From: a virus
Lineage: Duplodnaviria > Heunggongvirae > Uroviricota > Caudoviricetes
IMG/VR virus record: IMGVR_UViG_2724679140_000013
Reading direction: 5' to 3' (one strand)
DNA: 37,432 bases
Within the stretch, counting starts at the first letter, position 1. Each line of letters begins with the position of its first letter. Made by a program: the position numbers and the translations under genes. The notes below the pieces were generated by a model. The model made no database searches. It was not told the DNA's origin and was given only the letters and a program-made list of their open reading frames with translations. Below are positions 1 to 10,790 of this stretch, in pieces.

Positions 1-1002
1 TTACCCTCTATTGTCAAAAGGGTTCAATTCAACAGCAGCCTCTAAATGACCTGGAGCAAAATGCGCATAACGCATAGTCATTTTTATATCGCTATGCCCC
101 AGTATTTTTTGCAACACAAGAATATTTCCGCCCCGCATCATAAAATGACTGGCAAACGTGTGACGTAGCACATGAGTTAATTGCCCATCAGGAAGCTCGA
201 TCTTCGCTCTCTTAATTGCAGCGTCAAAAGCCTCATAACATGGTGAAAATAGCGCTCCTCGTTTTTTAGGAAGCATAGCCTGCAATTGAGGTGAAATCGG
301 TACAGTGCGGTTCTTCTTTCCTTTAGTTTTGACAAATGTGATTCGACCGGGCAGTACTTGAGATTGTTTTAATCCTTCTGCTTCACTCCACCGAGCACCA
401 GTCGCAAGCCCAATACGAACAACAACCCCCAAATCTTTATTCCGTGACTCATCACACGCAATCAGAAGGCGTTCAATCTCATCTACATACAGAAACGCCA
501 GTTCCTTTTCTTCCTCACGAAACTTGCGAATACCAGTCAGGGGGTTTTCACCAGACCACTCTCCAAGGCGCTTCAGTTCGGCAAAAACAGCATGTAGATA
601 TGACTGCTCACGATTAACAGTTGCTTCACTAAGTTTCTTCTTCCCCTTTGGATTCCATTCACCTGATAATCGCCGCTCCCTGTAGGTGGCAAACATATTT
701 TTATCAAATTGAGAAGCAAACGGATCACCTAACCTAGAACAAATCGCCTCGAGTTTAGCCCTTCGCTCTTCACCGGAAGACAGTGTTTTACCGTACATAT
801 CAAACCAGCGAGCAACCAACTCGGAAAGGTGGGGGCCAGAATCATCCTGAAACTCGCTCCCCAAATTACTATTCATTAAACGGCGCTCATAAGAGAGCGC
901 CTCACCCTTAGTCGCAAACTGTTTACGAATACGCTTTCCCGATGCTCCATACGGGTAACACTCGCAAAGCCATTTACCAGTAGGTAGTCTTCGAACACTC
1001 AT
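1..1002 (-). CDS. int: tyrosine recombinase / phage integrase
   Basis: 333 aa; C-terminal catalytic region with HVLRHTFAS...LGHSDIKMTMRYAH (R-H-R-Y integrase signature); ATG at 1002, stop at 1-3. Confidence 0.9.
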   Translation of the reverse strand: MSVRRLPTGKWLCECYPYGASGKRIRKQFATKGEALSYERRLMNSNLGSEFQDDSGPHLSELVARWFDMYGKTLSSGEERRAKLEAICSRLGDPFASQFDKNMFATYRERRLSGEWNPKGKKKLSEATVNREQSYLHAVFAELKRLGEWSGENPLTGIRKFREEEKELAFLYVDEIERLLIACDESRNKDLGVVVRIGLATGARWSEAEGLKQSQVLPGRITFVKTKGKKNRTVPISPQLQAMLPKKRGALFSPCYEAFDAAIKRAKIELPDGQLTHVLRHTFASHFMMRGGNILVLQKILGHSDIKMTMRYAHFAPGHLEAAVELNPFDNRG

Positions 1003-1007
1003 TCTAA

Positions 1008-1394
1008 TTAAGACTTAATCCATCCCATCATCAACATCAGAGATACCGCCGTATTAGAAACAGACTGATTTTGATATACTTTTCTATTCTTTTTTTTATC
1101 TGCGAAAGGCTCAAAGGCCATATCAAGTTGTTTAGTCAATTCCTCTGCCAACAATTTGAGGTCATCCATATTTTTAACTTGTGTAGACAATTCTGGTGTA
1201 AGTCTTCCTTGATTATAAAGTACAGCTATAAAGTCAGCCGAGGTAGCCAATTTGTTTTTATAAGATGCCTTTTGCCACTCAAGGGCGTTTGCCTTATGTA
1301 ATGTTCCACCTTCATACCATTCAGAGGCATAACCATGAGATGCAAAAACAAACAAGATATAAAAAAGGACTAATTTTAAATAATTACGCTGCAT
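1008..1394 (-). CDS. hypothetical secreted protein (N-terminal signal peptide), low-GC cargo
   Basis: 128 aa; hydrophobic N-terminus LKLVLFYILFVFASHGYA then polar mature region; AAGGA SD before ATG at 1394; AT-rich compared with phage core. Confidence 0.6.
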   Translation of the reverse strand: MQRNYLKLVLFYILFVFASHGYASEWYEGGTLHKANALEWQKASYKNKLATSADFIAVLYNQGRLTPELSTQVKNMDDLKLLAEELTKQLDMAFEPFADKKKNRKVYQNQSVSNTAVSLMLMMGWIKS

Positions 1395-1425
1395 ATCATA
1401 TTTCCTTGCATGTTATTTAACGTAT

Positions 1426-2073
1426 TTACACAAAATAAATTAAAAATGTAATCACCATACCCAAAATGAGTCCAACAATGAACACAATCAAAAATTCTTT
1501 AGTATATTCTGTTAATAGTTCACTAATGCAGTGTCTATTTTTAATATTGCCATTGCTCTGAGATATATTTTTATTAGTCTGCTGATCTAACCACGACAAT
1601 GCAGATTGCAACTGAGAACGAGTAAGATCGTTTAAACGGCCTGTACCGAAATTGATATGGCAATATCGAAGAAGTTTTTGTCTAATTTCATTACTTTCAC
1701 TGTTGCGAAGAAGGAGGCTTACAAGTAATTTACAGGCGTCATGATCCTTGTGTCGGTCAAGCATCGCATTGAGAAAGCTAATTGCGGTTGGATACTGATT
1801 CACCGTCATCTTATCGACACTATCAACACCGATTTCAGCATGAAGTTTACGCCAAACAACAAACGATTCTTCCTTGCTGGCATCAACAATCTTGTCAACC
1901 AACAACTTCAGTTGATGTCGCTGAGCCTTAACTAATGGGCGCTCATCAGGCCTACCAGAAGGGATTGCAATATTGACTGTATGCCGATCATCATATCGCT
2001 CTATCTGAATATTCTTTTCGTGGTAATCACGCCCAGCAACGCGATTGTCTGAACCGTTTGAGTTGACCGCCAT
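1426..2073 (-). CDS. hypothetical C-terminally membrane-anchored protein, co-transcribed with repressor
   Basis: 215 aa; single C-terminal TM helix FLIVFIVGLILGMVITFLIYFV; GGAGGTGA SD 6 nt upstream of ATG at 2073, immediately after repressor stop at 2092-2094; low GC. Confidence 0.6.
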   Translation of the reverse strand: MAVNSNGSDNRVAGRDYHEKNIQIERYDDRHTVNIAIPSGRPDERPLVKAQRHQLKLLVDKIVDASKEESFVVWRKLHAEIGVDSVDKMTVNQYPTAISFLNAMLDRHKDHDACKLLVSLLLRNSESNEIRQKLLRYCHINFGTGRLNDLTRSQLQSALSWLDQQTNKNISQSNGNIKNRHCISELLTEYTKEFLIVFIVGLILGMVITFLIYFV

Positions 2074-2091
2074 GTCACCTCCCTGCTAGAG

Positions 2092-2505
2092 CTAACCCTT
2101 AGTTTCGTTATAGTCACGACCAGCAATACGATGGCCCTTGCCAGAAGCTCTTATTGTACCTGGAGCCAAACTACCAGCGGTCAAGGCTGCCAAAGCCGCC
2201 GCCTTAACAGCCAAAGGTGCAGAGCGATATATTTTAATTAGCTCAATCTCATCTTCAGTGGCATTAGGGATGCCATGTGCACGACTACCAGAAAGTATGT
2301 AATAGACATCTACTCCGCAGCGCCTTCCCAAGAGATTCAGCATAGCTGCATCCGGTGTAGTCACCCCTCTTTCATACTTCCCCCAAGTCTTTGTAGAAAC
2401 TTCAAAAATAGACGCCATATCATCCTGAGTCATGCCAGTTTTCTCTCGTTCCTCCCGTAATCGACGTCCAATAATGACACTTAATTCCTCTTTTTCTGTT
2501 GACAT
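2092..2505 (-). CDS. HTH (XRE-family) immunity repressor, C/CI-like
   Basis: 137 aa; HTH segment GMTQDDMASIFEVSTKTWGKYERG; divergent from the early operon; sits between int and early genes as in P2. Confidence 0.8.
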   Translation of the reverse strand: MSTEKEELSVIIGRRLREEREKTGMTQDDMASIFEVSTKTWGKYERGVTTPDAAMLNLLGRRCGVDVYYILSGSRAHGIPNATEDEIELIKIYRSAPLAVKAAALAALTAGSLAPGTIRASGKGHRIAGRDYNETKG

Positions 2506-2564
2506 AGGAAGTTTTGTTCCCTAAAGTAATTTCACGTGCAATTAGATGATCACAATGTACCACT
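2506..2564. promoter_or_regulatory. divergent lysogenic/early promoter-operator switch region (Pc/Pe equivalent)
   Basis: 59-bp gap between divergently oriented repressor and first early gene; contains repeated tcacgtg / tcacaatg elements; position-based inference. Confidence 0.45.
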
Positions 2565-2771
2565 ATGAATCAAGTTAGTCACGACACCAAGTCACGCATT
2601 CCGCGTAATACCGCCACAGGTCCAAGACTGGCACTTAGGCTGTCCCTCGAGGAGCGAGCCATCATTGATGAAATGGCCGCCAAAGAACAACGCTCATCCT
2701 CTAACATGGCGCGCATGATCTTCCTTCGAGGCCTGGAGCTGACCCAGAAAGAACAAAACAAATCTTCCTGA
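2565..2771 (+). CDS. small early protein at the cox/apl position, possible ribbon-helix-helix DNA binder
   Basis: 68 aa; first gene of rightward early operon; segment LALRLSLEERAIIDEMAAKEQ resembles RHH fold pattern; assignment by position. Confidence 0.5.
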   Translation: MNQVSHDTKSRIPRNTATGPRLALRLSLEERAIIDEMAAKEQRSSSNMARMIFLRGLELTQKEQNKSS

Positions 2772-2787: not shown

Positions 2788-2991
2788 ATGTCAGGTATAA
2801 CCATCAATATCAATGTGAATGCCCCCTATGTATCCCTGCAGAAATATGCAGAGATAACAGGTATCCCTCTTAATACATGCAAAAAGATGTTGGCTGACGG
2901 TCGAATTATTATCCGACCAAAACGCGCCAAAATGGAAAAGCCAGAAGTAAACCTTGTGGCAATGCTGAAAGACGCTATCGCTAACAGTTAA
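2788..2991 (+). CDS. small early protein with HTH-like segment
   Basis: 67 aa; GGAGG SD upstream of ATG; YAEITGIPLNTCKKMLADGRI resembles an HTH. Confidence 0.5.
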   Translation: MSGITININVNAPYVSLQKYAEITGIPLNTCKKMLADGRIIIRPKRAKMEKPEVNLVAMLKDAIANS

Positions 2992-4861: not shown

Positions 4862-5065
4862 ATGAACAAAAAGACCTGGTTTCGCGCATACATGTGGGCG
4901 CTGGTATGCGTCCTCGTTTCTCTCATTCTGTATGCAGGACTACTCCCCCGAATGATTTCATCAGACAGCTCCTTCTTGGTATTGCTGGGCATTTTCATTG
5001 CCATGCTGTACCCGGCAGGCGTTGTTCGCCTTTTCAGTAAGTACATCAAGGAAATCAAACAATGA
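4862..5065 (+). CDS. small two-TM membrane protein, possible partner of downstream SPFH protein
   Basis: 67 aa; two hydrophobic helices (WALVCVLVSLILYAGLL and FLVLLGIFIAMLYPAGVV); stop overlaps start of next gene. Confidence 0.5.
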   Translation: MNKKTWFRAYMWALVCVLVSLILYAGLLPRMISSDSSFLVLLGIFIAMLYPAGVVRLFSKYIKEIKQ

Positions 5066-5892
5066 AGAAACTCAAACTCTTTCAGATTATCCCGCTTTTT
5101 GCCGCCATCCTGCTGGTTGGTTGCGATCGCGTTGAGCCAGGTAATGTGGGCATCAAAGTCAACAAACTGGGCGACGACAAAGGCGTCGGTGAAGTGGTTG
5201 GCGTTGGCCGCTACTGGACAGGCTGGAATACAGAGGTTTACATCTTCCCGACCTTCAAACAAATGAAGACCTACGATGAGCCGTTCAGCTTTCAGATGAG
5301 TGACGGCACAACCATCGGCTATCACATCGGTGTGGCCTACAAGGTTGATCCATCCAAAGTTACTACAGTGTTTCAGACCTACCGCAAAGGCGTGGACGAC
5401 ATTACCGACACTGACCTGCGCCAGAAGATCGCCGATGCACTCAACCGACTGGCCAGCAAAATGACCACCGATAAATTCATCGACGGTGGCAAGTCTGAAC
5501 TGCTGGATTCAGCACTTAAAGATATTCAGGAAGAGATGACCCCCATCGGTATTCAGGTCATGAGCCTCTCTTATGTCGGTAAACCGGAATATCCGCCAAC
5601 CGTTATCGACAGCATTAACGCCAAAGTCACGGCAAACCAGAAAACCCTGCAACGCGAACAGGAAGTCAAGCAACGCGAAGCAGAAGCCAACATGTTGCGC
5701 GCAGAAGCTGCCGGACAGGCTGATGCCATTCGCACAAAAGCCCAGGCTGAAGCCGACGCCATTCGTTTACGCGGTGAAGCTCTGCGCCAGAATCCCGGCG
5801 TTATGGAGCTGGAAGCAATCAACAAATGGAACGGCACGCTGCCGCAATACATGACCAGCAATACCGCTGTTCCGTTTGTTCCGGTGAAGTAA
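5062..5892 (+). CDS. SPFH/band-7 (HflC/prohibitin-like) domain lipoprotein
   Basis: 276 aa; lipobox LLVGC after signal peptide; SPFH-like core followed by Ala/Glu/Arg-rich coiled-coil (QREQEVKQREAEANMLRAEAAGQADAIRTKAQAEADAIRLRGEA) and C-terminal WNGTLP motif. Confidence 0.75.
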   Translation: MKKLKLFQIIPLFAAILLVGCDRVEPGNVGIKVNKLGDDKGVGEVVGVGRYWTGWNTEVYIFPTFKQMKTYDEPFSFQMSDGTTIGYHIGVAYKVDPSKVTTVFQTYRKGVDDITDTDLRQKIADALNRLASKMTTDKFIDGGKSELLDSALKDIQEEMTPIGIQVMSLSYVGKPEYPPTVIDSINAKVTANQKTLQREQEVKQREAEANMLRAEAAGQADAIRTKAQAEADAIRLRGEALRQNPGVMELEAINKWNGTLPQYMTSNTAVPFVPVK

Positions 5893-9830: not shown

Positions 9831-10790
9831 ATGAAAATTTGTATCGATGACGGCTCCACCAACATCAAGCTGGCATGGACTGAGAACGGCGAACGCCGCA
9901 ACGCCATCAGCCCGAACAGCTTCAAGTCGGAATGGTCTGCGCCGTTCGGTGGAACGCAGCCCGCAAACTACATGCTTGATGGCGTGCGCTATGGTTTTGA
10001 TCCGGTCAGCGATCGCTTTGTCCAGACGACCGACACGCAATACCAGTACAGCGATGTGAATGTCATTGCCATTCATCACGCGCTGGTCAAATCAGGCATC
10101 ACACCACAGGAAGTGGATGTGGTTGTCACCCTGCCACTGAGCGAATATTTCGACACCAACGCACAGCCGGACATGGCCAACATCAACCGCAAAAAAGCAA
10201 ACGTCATGCGCCCGGTGGCGTACCAGAACGGAAAAGCATTCACTATCCGTAACGTACGGGTTATGCCTGAATCCATTCCGGCTGGTTTTAAAGCACTGGC
10301 TGACATGAGTCCGTTTGAATCCCTGCTGATTGTGGATTTAGGCGGAACCACGCTGGATGTGGCAAAGGTTCAGGGACAACTGGCAGGTATCAGCCAGGTG
10401 TTTTGCGATCCACACGTAGGCGTTTCCCTGATGGCCGATGCCGTACTGTCGGTGATGGCCACTAACGGTATGCGTACCAGTCACCACATCGCCAATACCA
10501 TTATCGAACATCGCCATGATGAAGCCTGGCTGCGCCAGCACATCCACAATGACGCGCATTACGCCAGCCTGATGGCGGTTATTCGTGAAAAGGAAGAAAC
10601 ACTGAAACAACGCGTGATCCGCGCGCTGGCGGGTTTTTCGGGTTACGGGCGGGTGATGGTTGTCGGTGGAGGGGCGGAGATTGTGGCACCCGCTATCCGC
10701 GAAGCCTGCGGAGTTAATGCGACTTTCATCGCGGACGGGGTGCCACAGTTTGCTCTGGTTAACGGGCTGTACGCAATGGACAAGGAGTAA
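9831..10790 (+). CDS. parM: ParM/StbA-type actin-like partition ATPase
   Basis: 319 aa; N-terminus MKICIDDGSTNIKLAW and motifs YSDVNVIAIHHAL, IVDLGGTTLD, VMVVGGGAEI closely resemble plasmid R1 ParM as I recall it. Confidence 0.85.
   Translation: MKICIDDGSTNIKLAWTENGERRNAISPNSFKSEWSAPFGGTQPANYMLDGVRYGFDPVSDRFVQTTDTQYQYSDVNVIAIHHALVKSGITPQEVDVVVTLPLSEYFDTNAQPDMANINRKKANVMRPVAYQNGKAFTIRNVRVMPESIPAGFKALADMSPFESLLIVDLGGTTLDVAKVQGQLAGISQVFCDPHVGVSLMADAVLSVMATNGMRTSHHIANTIIEHRHDEAWLRQHIHNDAHYASLMAVIREKEETLKQRVIRALAGFSGYGRVMVVGGGAEIVAPAIREACGVNATFIADGVPQFALVNGLYAMDKE

Follow-up and report, generated by a model that had tools for sequence, protein, structure and literature searches.

Matching terminal peptides on a predicted prophage immunity repressor and on the membrane protein encoded beside it

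Why would a phage repressor and the membrane protein encoded next to it carry the same short peptide, one at its C-terminus and the other at its N-terminus? The question is raised by IMG/VR virus record IMGVR_UViG_2724679140_000013, a stretch of 37,432 nucleotides (nt; the whole stretch is called the window below) which is a P2-like prophage, 99.9% identical to E. coli M8 over the region tested and integrated beside yecA. An earlier note, made from the letters of this DNA, described a motif R(I/V)AGRDY(N/H)E shared by the two proteins and proposed that both termini could be ligands of one partner. The reading preferred here, with a rough probability of 0.55 based on sequence comparisons, is that the tail of the repressor and the head of the membrane protein (the partner) are matched adaptor halves which recognise each other directly and would physically couple the lysogeny switch to a membrane protein. 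Immunity repressors are usually seen as self-contained DNA-binding switches. Here the best-conserved part in a widely distributed group of repressors is a disordered tail, and the only visible counterpart of this tail is the head of the adjacent membrane protein.

Two matched peptides at one gene junction

The repressor matches the XRE-type helix-turn-helix (HTH) families HTH_31, HTH_19 and HTH_3 in Pfam, where no peptidase S24 domain was detected in it. As is typical of P2-like immunity repressors, this HTH protein adjoins int and is divergent from the Cox-like early genes, and by domain and position it is assigned as the immunity repressor of the prophage. Its C-terminal end reads ...SGKGHRIAGRDYNETKG / ...ASGKGHRIAGRDYNETKG. 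In an AlphaFold2 model made with the family alignment (model me509d4b4bea9) the predicted local distance difference test (pLDDT) values are about 50 or lower over residues 113-137.

The N-terminus of the partner reads MAVNSNGSDNRVAGRDYHEKN. PF27202 (Flk_N) was assigned to all 120 listed partner homologues, and phrog_5825 is matched with an E-value of 6.8e-86. In the AlphaFold2 model, also made with the family alignment (model m5e49adc264fe), a disordered head is followed by a confidently modelled helical domain and a hydrophobic C-terminal helix. According to this model the partner is tail-anchored and most of it lies in the cytoplasm. The labels "repressor" and "membrane protein" given in the earlier note are thus borne out by the XRE HTH of the one and the C-terminal transmembrane helix of the other.

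Local similarity between the two proteins extends beyond the core motif, to S121-E134 of the repressor and S5-E19 of the partner. The Smith-Waterman score of the last 30 amino acids (aa) of the repressor against the first 30 of the partner is 53, a value reached by none of 20,000 shuffles. When a hidden Markov model (HMM) of the motif was run against the six-frame translation of the whole window, only these two sites were found (E ~1e-10 each; next best 0.22), i.e. no third motif-bearing open reading frame (ORF) was detected in the prophage. The span 2038-2130, to which the motif pair had previously been assigned, contains the repressor copy (2104..2130) in full, but its start at 2038 cuts through the partner copy (2017..2043). 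The core is encoded by cgt att gct ggt cgt gac tat aac gaa in the repressor gene and by cgc gtt gct ggg cgt gat tac cac gaa in the partner gene. Six of the 27 nt differ: four are synonymous third positions and two are non-synonymous (I/V, N/H). The codons had been quoted exactly, and their differences are indeed mainly synonymous.

Both genes belong to a lysogenic operon on the minus strand, in the order repressor, 18-nt spacer, 215-aa partner, 128-aa protein and integrase. No terminator between the two genes and no structure signal was found in the spacer, and the repressor and partner are therefore expected to be co-transcribed. In the window they share a reading frame, with two TAG stops between them. 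In related loci the spacer is mostly -4 to +27 nt and the relative frame is not conserved. Stop read-through or a fusion protein was rejected because of the two TAG codons and because spacer length and frame vary among loci. No natural repressor-partner fusion was found among 240 homologues.

Conservation and selection

The tail was kept in 117 of 120 repressor homologues (114 with GRD and three with the variants GNN and GGD) and is missing from the other three. The pattern ...AP.AVKAAALAALTAG-linker-(I/V)N(V)SG.GNR(V/I)AGRD(Y/F).E.KK describes 114 of the 120, and the near-invariant tail columns are G122, R126, A128, G129, R130, D131 and E134. This C-terminal region (helix AP.AVKAAALAALTAG plus motif) is the best-conserved part of the repressor even where HTH identity is only ~45-50%. 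For example, the E. coli O157:H7 repressor has a different HTH, yet it ends ...NISGGNNRIAGRDYNETKGR, and its partner has the head MAVNSNGSNNRVAGRDFHEKN.

Among the matches listed, all 120 partner homologues start with M.VNS.G..NR..GRD(F/Y).E or a close variant. A13 and D16 of the head are near-invariant across the whole partner family, and distant members (25-30% identity) retain the head motif. In the window the motif is followed in the head by a second beta-like stretch (NIQIERYDDRHTVNIAIPS), and some relatives (P0242, P0244, P0251, P0271) carry a clear second copy of the motif there (AGRDF...IGRDIVNI). The consensus tail and head are similar over ~16 residues (SGQGNRVAGRDYNENK vs TGEQNRISGRDFNENN).

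Codon usage in the two copies was compared in 44 non-redundant loci, with the expectation taken from pooled codon usage. Identical degenerate residues use the same codon in both copies in 183 of 436 cases, while 184.4 are expected by chance. The ratio of non-synonymous to synonymous differences (pN/pS) in the core among orthologues is 0.12 for the tail and 0.17 for the head, and the synonymous differences of the motif (pS 0.7-0.8) are near saturation. Both peptides are under strong purifying selection. A recent duplication or gene conversion was rejected, as codon identity between the copies is at chance level. The randomised synonymous sites imply that the similarity of tail and head has been held for a long time. 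Chance-level codon sharing and the low pN/pS agree with the suggestion of the earlier note that selection acts on the peptide and that the repeat is not a scar of recent duplication. A DNA- or RNA-level repeat was rejected as well: the copies are 49-71% identical in DNA, their third positions are randomised and no terminator or structure signal is present.

A basic cluster follows the motif and ends almost all repressor tails (NENKK, HEGKK, RRRKIK, KNKKNR, GKKEKKP, GSKGKK, EKRKK, NTKRK). It is seen at 2095..2103 of the window and in L118, L128, L111 and L130-L133, among others (loci are given as L numbers and proteins as P numbers). Partner heads have no such cluster. It might serve as an aggregation gatekeeper, bind anionic lipid or DNA, or act as a ClpX-type C-terminal signal. 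C-terminal ClpX recognition signals are known, e.g. in MuA, and the basic tails of the repressors recall these.

Co-variation of tail and head

Tail and head change together across Enterobacterales, Pseudomonas, Gilliamella, Mycoavidus, Ralstonia and metagenomes. For example, QQFNGPVGGVTSGDV is paired with QQFNGAVDQVAAGDI, and GQVSAENIYNI with GQVAANNIYNI; further pairs are listed in Table 1. For 12 motif classes the summed score of the cognate pairings is 511, compared with 319 +/- 34 for permuted pairings, and none of 100,000 permutations reached 511. Co-variation of the motif in homologues, which the earlier note had suggested looking for, is therefore present. A single host genus can hold more than one class: Dickeya has the canonical class (P0200, P0216) and a variant (L128), and Gilliamella has two variants (L117, L118).

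Table 1. Tail and head sequences at selected related loci
Locus	Source	Repressor tail	Partner head	Remarks
L085		...QQFNGPVGGVTSGDVVNERKP (stop)	MSQHQQFNGAVDQVAAGDIKNF	
L087	Mu-like	...AHGGQAAGGKIVNR (stop)	...AGGGHAAGRDIRYA	
L118	Gilliamella	...GEGQIAGGNIYT...	...AEQIAGRDIYNIT	
L117	Gilliamella	...DGQVSAENIYNIG...	...VGQVAANNIYNIY	153-aa non-Flk membrane protein
L128	Dickeya	...QVFNGDITGQVAGNQIINNG...	MHQEFNGTASGQFSARDIINI	
L111	Mycoavidus	...QSVEGDVGQQVRGGNITN...	...QSIVGDVGQVAGKNIINS	
L132		...QVFHGKVGQSIAGNVDQRGAKVGVFGKKK (stop)	MATQVFREDVGQAVAGDLVNSGVVINIG	
L133		...QVIHGDVLGNVIKGDVTMGAG...	...QTVNGDVGNVVSGDVTINNYSG	
L241	Ralstonia phage YO107_2 (ON170188.1), 629..2681	...QVFHQAPTGDIFGRDLVKKKGK (stop)	QEFSGPVGDVAGRDIIN and QDFHGPVGQVAGRDIIN	two tandem membrane-protein genes; record unannotated

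Exchange of the flanking domains and joint gain and loss

The peptide pair and the helix preceding the tail are constant across loci. The DNA-binding domains of the repressors vary (XRE HTH_3, Phage_CI_repr PF07022 and at least two other HTH types), and the partners are diverse too. The 107 unique canonical pairs comprise 82 Flk_N partners, 14 zinc-ribbon partners, 5 other partners with predicted transmembrane helices, and 6 truncated fragments or pseudogenes. Zinc-ribbon partners (117-146 aa) combine the head motif with CPxC...CxHC, and transmembrane helices were predicted in 13 of the 14, with one sequence cut at a contig end. The carriers of the module include P2-like and Mu-like elements. 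No third conserved gene travels with the pair in related loci, and the gene after the partner varies. By analogy, a fixed candidate adaptor with exchangeable domains on both sides is the pattern of homotypic adaptor motifs in conflict systems.

One partner is unusual. In L163 (IMGVR_UViG_2910497805_000001, around 10017..10340) an 81-aa protein has the head motif and then LTPREKALLYHFRSVGDARQASILAIL. This stretch resembles the C-terminal helix module of the repressor (LSSDEQELLELFKTAPLAVKAAVLGAL), as if the partner were a repressor minus its DNA-binding domain.

Every locus fetched via the partner protein has an upstream HTH gene bearing the tail (87 pairs). The terminal position of the motif was surveyed with a degenerate DNA pattern for NR[VI]AGRD[YF] across IMG/VR viral contigs. 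Among the 115 occurrences, 36 lie at most 12 residues from a stop and 77 lie ~10 residues or less from a start. The two which could not be classified are L195, at a contig end, and L193, 15 residues before a stop. A single start-proximal occurrence (L143) is found inside a 501-residue ORF and looks like chance. Across all fetched loci, 428 motif hits resolve into 204 tail-then-head pairs and 20 singles. The singles are mostly contig ends, pseudogenes in decayed symbiont genomes (Arsenophonus, Edwardsiella), insertions and heads below the threshold.

The three tail-less repressor contexts L093, L240 and L112, of which two are P2-like prophages, have no such partner. From these comparisons, tail and partner are taken to be an add-on gained and lost as a unit, because tail-less repressors work in sister prophages. 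The add-on occupies the usual place of lysogenic-conversion and exclusion genes.

Some loci depart from the usual arrangement. In two viral contigs (L172, L214) tail and head are ~726 nt apart, compared with the usual ~90 nt, which suggests an extra gene or element inserted between the module genes. Arsenophonus L099 and L101 have a tail-bearing repressor and then a second truncated repressor copy with its own tail, with no partner, while Edwardsiella L104 and L116 retain the tail with no recognisable partner ORF. The Arsenophonus and Edwardsiella cases look like decaying modules.

Related DNA was found in 515 of 5,426 complete E. coli genomes, including the P2-like prophage of O157:H7, and the peptide pair was confirmed at the O157:H7 EDL933 locus. 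The module also occurs in Klebsiella, Serratia, Pectobacterium, Yersinia, Pseudomonas, Gilliamella, Ralstonia and others. In ~50,700 deposited phage genomes, relatives of the window partner were detected only in Escherichia phage 520873 (two records, one genome) and, distantly, in Ralstonia phage YO107_2. The former is a relative of the window prophage and is classified in Peduoviridae, genus Xuanwuvirus. Neither the Pseudomonas zinc-ribbon partner nor the consensus tail was found among characterised phages. Despite the small number of deposited phages carrying relatives of the partner, the module is amenable to ordinary E. coli genetics.

Resemblance to described systems

Amyloid signalling motifs of the BASS families are ~25 aa long, with conserved G, N, Q and charged residues and hydrophobic patterns. 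Q, N, G, V and I are over-represented in them, K, P and L are scarce, and the motifs sometimes form pseudo-repeats on the effector vs one copy on the sensor; HET-S/NWD2 and BASS1/6 are examples (bioRxiv 10.1101/2020.01.06.895854). In E. coli Bab/Agp, a 20-aa amyloid motif (BASS11) is common to adjacent genes in a prophage defence island (bioRxiv 10.1101/2024.11.07.622273). Here the mean length of the motif segment is 21 aa in the tail and 24.7 aa in the head. Relative to background amino-acid frequencies taken from general knowledge, the motif is enriched in N (3.0x), G (2.1x), Q (2.0x), I (1.7x) and V (1.55x) and depleted in L (0.17x), P (0.18x) and K (0.35x). The predicted tail and head segments match BASS motifs in reported length and composition.

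As in the amyloid signalling pairs (Bell/NLR BASS1-10, Bab/Agp, HET-S/NWD2), a motif of ~20-25 residues is found at a C-terminus and an N-terminus encoded by adjacent genes, the same motif is joined to different effector domains, one partner is membrane-targeting, and pseudo-repeats are present in some membrane partners with one copy in the repressor. The prophage location is shared with Bab/Agp. Unlike in these pairs, the upstream protein is a DNA-binding repressor rather than a Bell/HeLo effector, and the downstream protein is a small membrane protein rather than an NLR or TPR-PIN sensor. In Pfam and PADLOC neither protein showed homology to a BASS family member or domain. From its sequence features the module looks like an amyloid signalling pair, one which falls outside every described family.

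In lambda, rexA lies on the cI transcript; RexA binds CI and biases the switch towards lysis, an effect modulated by the membrane protein RexB (bioRxiv 10.1101/2021.04.19.439022). The module resembles cI-rexA-rexB in its place directly downstream of the repressor in the lysogenic transcript and in its inclusion of a membrane protein. However, lambda has no matched terminal peptides, whereas here the membrane protein carries the matching peptide. Neither repressor nor partner has homology to RexA or RexB in Pfam, PADLOC or PHROGs.

Flk is a tail-anchored membrane protein (PMC6794478). This flagellar regulator of Salmonella and E. coli, also called RflH, shares with the partner a Flk_N domain followed by a C-terminal tail anchor, and true Flk proteins are among the distant matches of the partner family. 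True Flk is, in contrast, 330-370 aa long, has two domain copies, starts with MQPLSGP..., lacks the head motif, and is encoded on the chromosome and not beside a repressor. The window partner was rejected as a Flk orthologue, being a 215-aa protein with one domain copy and the head motif, encoded in a prophage immunity operon.

Ant-type and ORF6C/KilAC-containing anti-repressors of phages, and P4 epsilon, bind the immunity repressor on which they act, and a part of Flk_N is weakly similar to anti-repressor families in PHROGs. Known anti-repressors are soluble, have separate regulated promoters and contact folded repressor domains. The partner, in contrast, is predicted to be membrane-anchored and is co-expressed with the repressor, and the contact would be a terminal peptide. 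In the literature searched on membrane-anchored anti-repressors, Flk in prophages and Xuanwuvirus repressors, no description of the module was found. Matched terminal motifs between adjacent genes are known; a repressor tail and membrane-protein head at a lysogeny switch would be a new setting for them.

Interpretation and alternatives

In the preferred reading, the disordered tail of the repressor and the disordered head of a membrane protein from the same transcript would recognise each other directly. Direct binding of tail to head is judged likely on the sequence evidence. It is economical, because several classes are found per host genus and there is neither a third conserved gene nor a third motif. 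The peptide pair is the sole constant while both flanking domains swap, which also argues for direct recognition. The likely mode of contact would be beta-strand or cross-beta (amyloid-like) co-assembly. Whether this would involve cross-beta templating rather than a simple 1:1 contact is close to an even bet, with slightly worse odds for templating.

The direction favoured, although tentatively, is that the state of the repressor would be relayed to the membrane protein and result in exclusion, abortive infection or membrane permeabilisation. By analogy with the logic of lambda cI-rexA-rexB and Bab/Agp, the repressor would signal and the membrane protein would execute. Upon a change in repressor state the small membrane proteins would cluster and make the membrane permeable or affect it in another way. 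The trigger could be an incoming anti-repressor, an example of which is P4 epsilon, which acts on P2 C. An executing membrane protein is favoured because the partners are diverse and small and have no periplasmic sensing part, because the Ralstonia phage has tandem partners, and because Bab/Agp and rex provide precedents.

A bolder version, which is speculative and rather unlikely, would have temperate phages (P2-like, Mu-like and others) wire their repressors to membrane proteins via a self-templating, prion-like peptide with interchangeable specificity classes. A conformational change nucleated on one protein would be copied onto the other. Either a perturbation of the repressor, by the anti-repressor of an invading phage or satellite, would fire the membrane effector, or a membrane event would switch the repressor off. 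If true, amyloid signalling would operate inside the lysis-lysogeny switch.

If the adaptor reading is true, the pairing would give the lysogeny switch a new channel, for input or for output. The control of short RecA-insensitive repressors in P2-like and Mu-like prophages, or the way prophages guard their repressor against hijacking, could be explained by it, and it could extend amyloid-type signalling from NLR-like defence to phage gene regulation.

Several observations weigh against direct coupling of this kind. No NLR/STAND, NB-ARC, NACHT, Bell, HeLo, TIR or CHAT domain was found in either protein (Pfam, PADLOC, PHROGs). The orientation of the motifs is that of the Bell/Bab pairs, with a caveat that matching domain roles are not established. 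Many amyloid cores carry less charge than the canonical motif with its R, R, D and E. Within the canonical class the variation is too small to reveal residue-by-residue co-variation, and none is seen; for example, repressor Y is often opposite partner F. The repressors P0209 and P0225 are listed with the same Erwinia pyrifoliae contig of 4,107,700 bp, so that a single genome appears to contain more than one module of a class, and the classes do not obviously insulate co-resident prophages. The co-variation between classes could in part be explained if tail and head were copied once when each class arose and were conserved independently thereafter. Finally, the XRE repressor has no evident sensor domain, and constitutive co-expression makes a plain anti-repressor role paradoxical.

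It is possible, if doubtful, that the direction is the reverse; sensing or sequestering of the repressor by the membrane protein was also proposed in the earlier note. The partner would then be a membrane-anchored anti-repressor or sensor, whose head sequesters, aggregates or hands over the repressor. Such capture, equally doubtful in this role, would tune the immunity or trigger the induction of a prophage whose short repressor lacks a RecA-cleavable domain; the missing peptidase S24 domain is in keeping with this. The Flk_N domain recurrently matches anti-repressor families: phrog_245 was matched by 21 of 36 family members (best E 2.3e-8), phrog_2127 by 10 of 36 and phrog_463 by 1 of 36, and ORF6C and GemA are matched as well. 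The match of the window partner itself to phrog_245 is weak (E 1.7e-4), and the matches concern one helical sub-domain of multidomain families. Pfam ANT, Bro and KilA gave no match to the partner, and PADLOC gave no match for any partner type. However, the PHROG labels are annotations of multidomain families and not established functions of Flk_N, and Flk_N is dispensable for pairing, with zinc-ribbon and other membrane proteins replacing it. Lambda RexA, which binds CI and favours the lytic state under modulation by RexB, would be a precedent for capture, and the 81-aa partner of L163 is like a DNA-binding-deficient decoy of the C-terminal part of the repressor. Tail-anchored and two-helix proteins with almost no periplasmic sensing part fit a sensor poorly, and since the lysogen expresses both genes at once, some regulated step would be required, and none is visible.

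Improbable is the suggestion of the earlier note that both termini are ligands of one partner, e.g. a protease or adaptor. A factor of this kind, or a chaperone, would bind both and thereby co-regulate them or make them compete, with no mutual contact. Both motifs are short, disordered, terminal and degron-like, and the basic clusters after the repressor motif (NENKK, RRRKIK, KNKKNR, GKKEKKP, EKRKK) would suit such a signal. But a common partner predicts one motif per host lineage, whereas Dickeya and Gilliamella each hold two classes and host proteases are conserved. The swapping of flanking domains also makes it less likely, as does the lack of a third conserved gene with the pair (the gene after the partner varies) and of a third motif ORF in the prophage.

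An old local duplication at the gene boundary, with each copy conserved separately (e.g. for self-oligomerisation) and no functional relation between them, is very improbable: slippage or duplication would easily give copies 87-114 nt apart in the same orientation, and the canonical class is without fine co-variation, but at least a dozen classes keep tail and head alike while differing among themselves, the pair survives when both flanking domains are exchanged, the tail and its partner disappear together, and with synonymous sites randomised the similarity has been long held.

Other features of the locus

The coordinates of the module and its neighbours are collected in Table 2.

Table 2. 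Features of the lysogenic operon and of the divergent early region in the window
Feature	Position	Strand	Description
Repressor gene	2092..2505	minus	137 aa; XRE-type HTH 1-72, two helices 84-112, disordered tail 113-137 (Pfam and AlphaFold2)
Disordered repressor tail, residues 113-137	2095..2169	minus	low pLDDT (AlphaFold2)
Tail motif S121-E134	2104..2145	minus	SGKGHRIAGRDYNE; core R126-E134 at 2104..2130
Intergenic spacer	2074..2091	minus	18 nt; GGAGG Shine-Dalgarno at 2078..2082
Partner gene	1426..2073	minus	215-aa predicted tail-anchored membrane protein, Flk_N family (PF27202, phrog_5825)
Disordered partner head, residues 1-40	1954..2073	minus	pLDDT 43-51 (AlphaFold2); weak strands 25-28 and 31-33
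Head motif S5-E19	2017..2061	minus	SNGSDNRVAGRDYHE; core R11-E19 at 2017..2043
Flk_N helical domain, residues 45-175	1549..1941	minus	predicted cytoplasmic; modelled confidently (AlphaFold2)
C-terminal transmembrane helix, residues 191-214	1432..1503	minus	pLDDT 85-95; hydrophobic FLIVFIVGLILGMVITFLIYFV
Third lysogenic-operon gene	1008..1394	minus	128 aa; hydrophobic N-terminus suggesting export; phrog_23065, function not assigned
Integrase	1..1002	minus	fourth gene of lysogenic operon
Small early regulator	2565..2771	plus	68 aa; weak ribbon-helix-helix similarity; 'Arc-like repressor' in phage 520873 annotation
Cox-like protein	2788..2991	plus	67 aa; second gene of divergent early operon
SPFH-domain protein	5062..5892	plus	276 aa; early operon; from RefSeq annotation of identical E. 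coli M8 region; lipoprotein-like N-terminus (...LLVGC)

The place of the third operon gene is taken by an unrelated DUF2511 protein in the O157:H7 prophage and by YebY-like proteins elsewhere. Judging from this comparison, the slot is a variable cargo site outside the tail/head module, because unrelated proteins occupy it in relatives.

A 41-aa ORF in another frame (2001..2126, minus strand; MLVVTITKLRVSSSREVTWRSTQTVQTIALLGVITTKRIFR) crosses the junction of the repressor and partner genes and is found again in related loci. Most likely it is not a gene and arises from constraint on the two motifs which it overlaps.

RefSeq records of E. coli do not include the gene of the small early regulator and instead place a 45-aa ORF on the other strand. 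The SPFH-domain protein may merit attention, as a phage-borne SPFH copy here shares a prophage with a membrane-linked repressor module. SPFH proteins (HflK/C) modulate FtsH, and FtsH degrades lambda CII.

In phage 520873 (L001, NC_049344.1; 1039..3065) the integrase is annotated as two coding sequences, and the Flk_N partner gene is frameshifted and split into unannotated ORFs of 55 aa and 115 aa. With its integrase split and its partner gene broken, this element seems to be a prophage in decay and not a viable phage.

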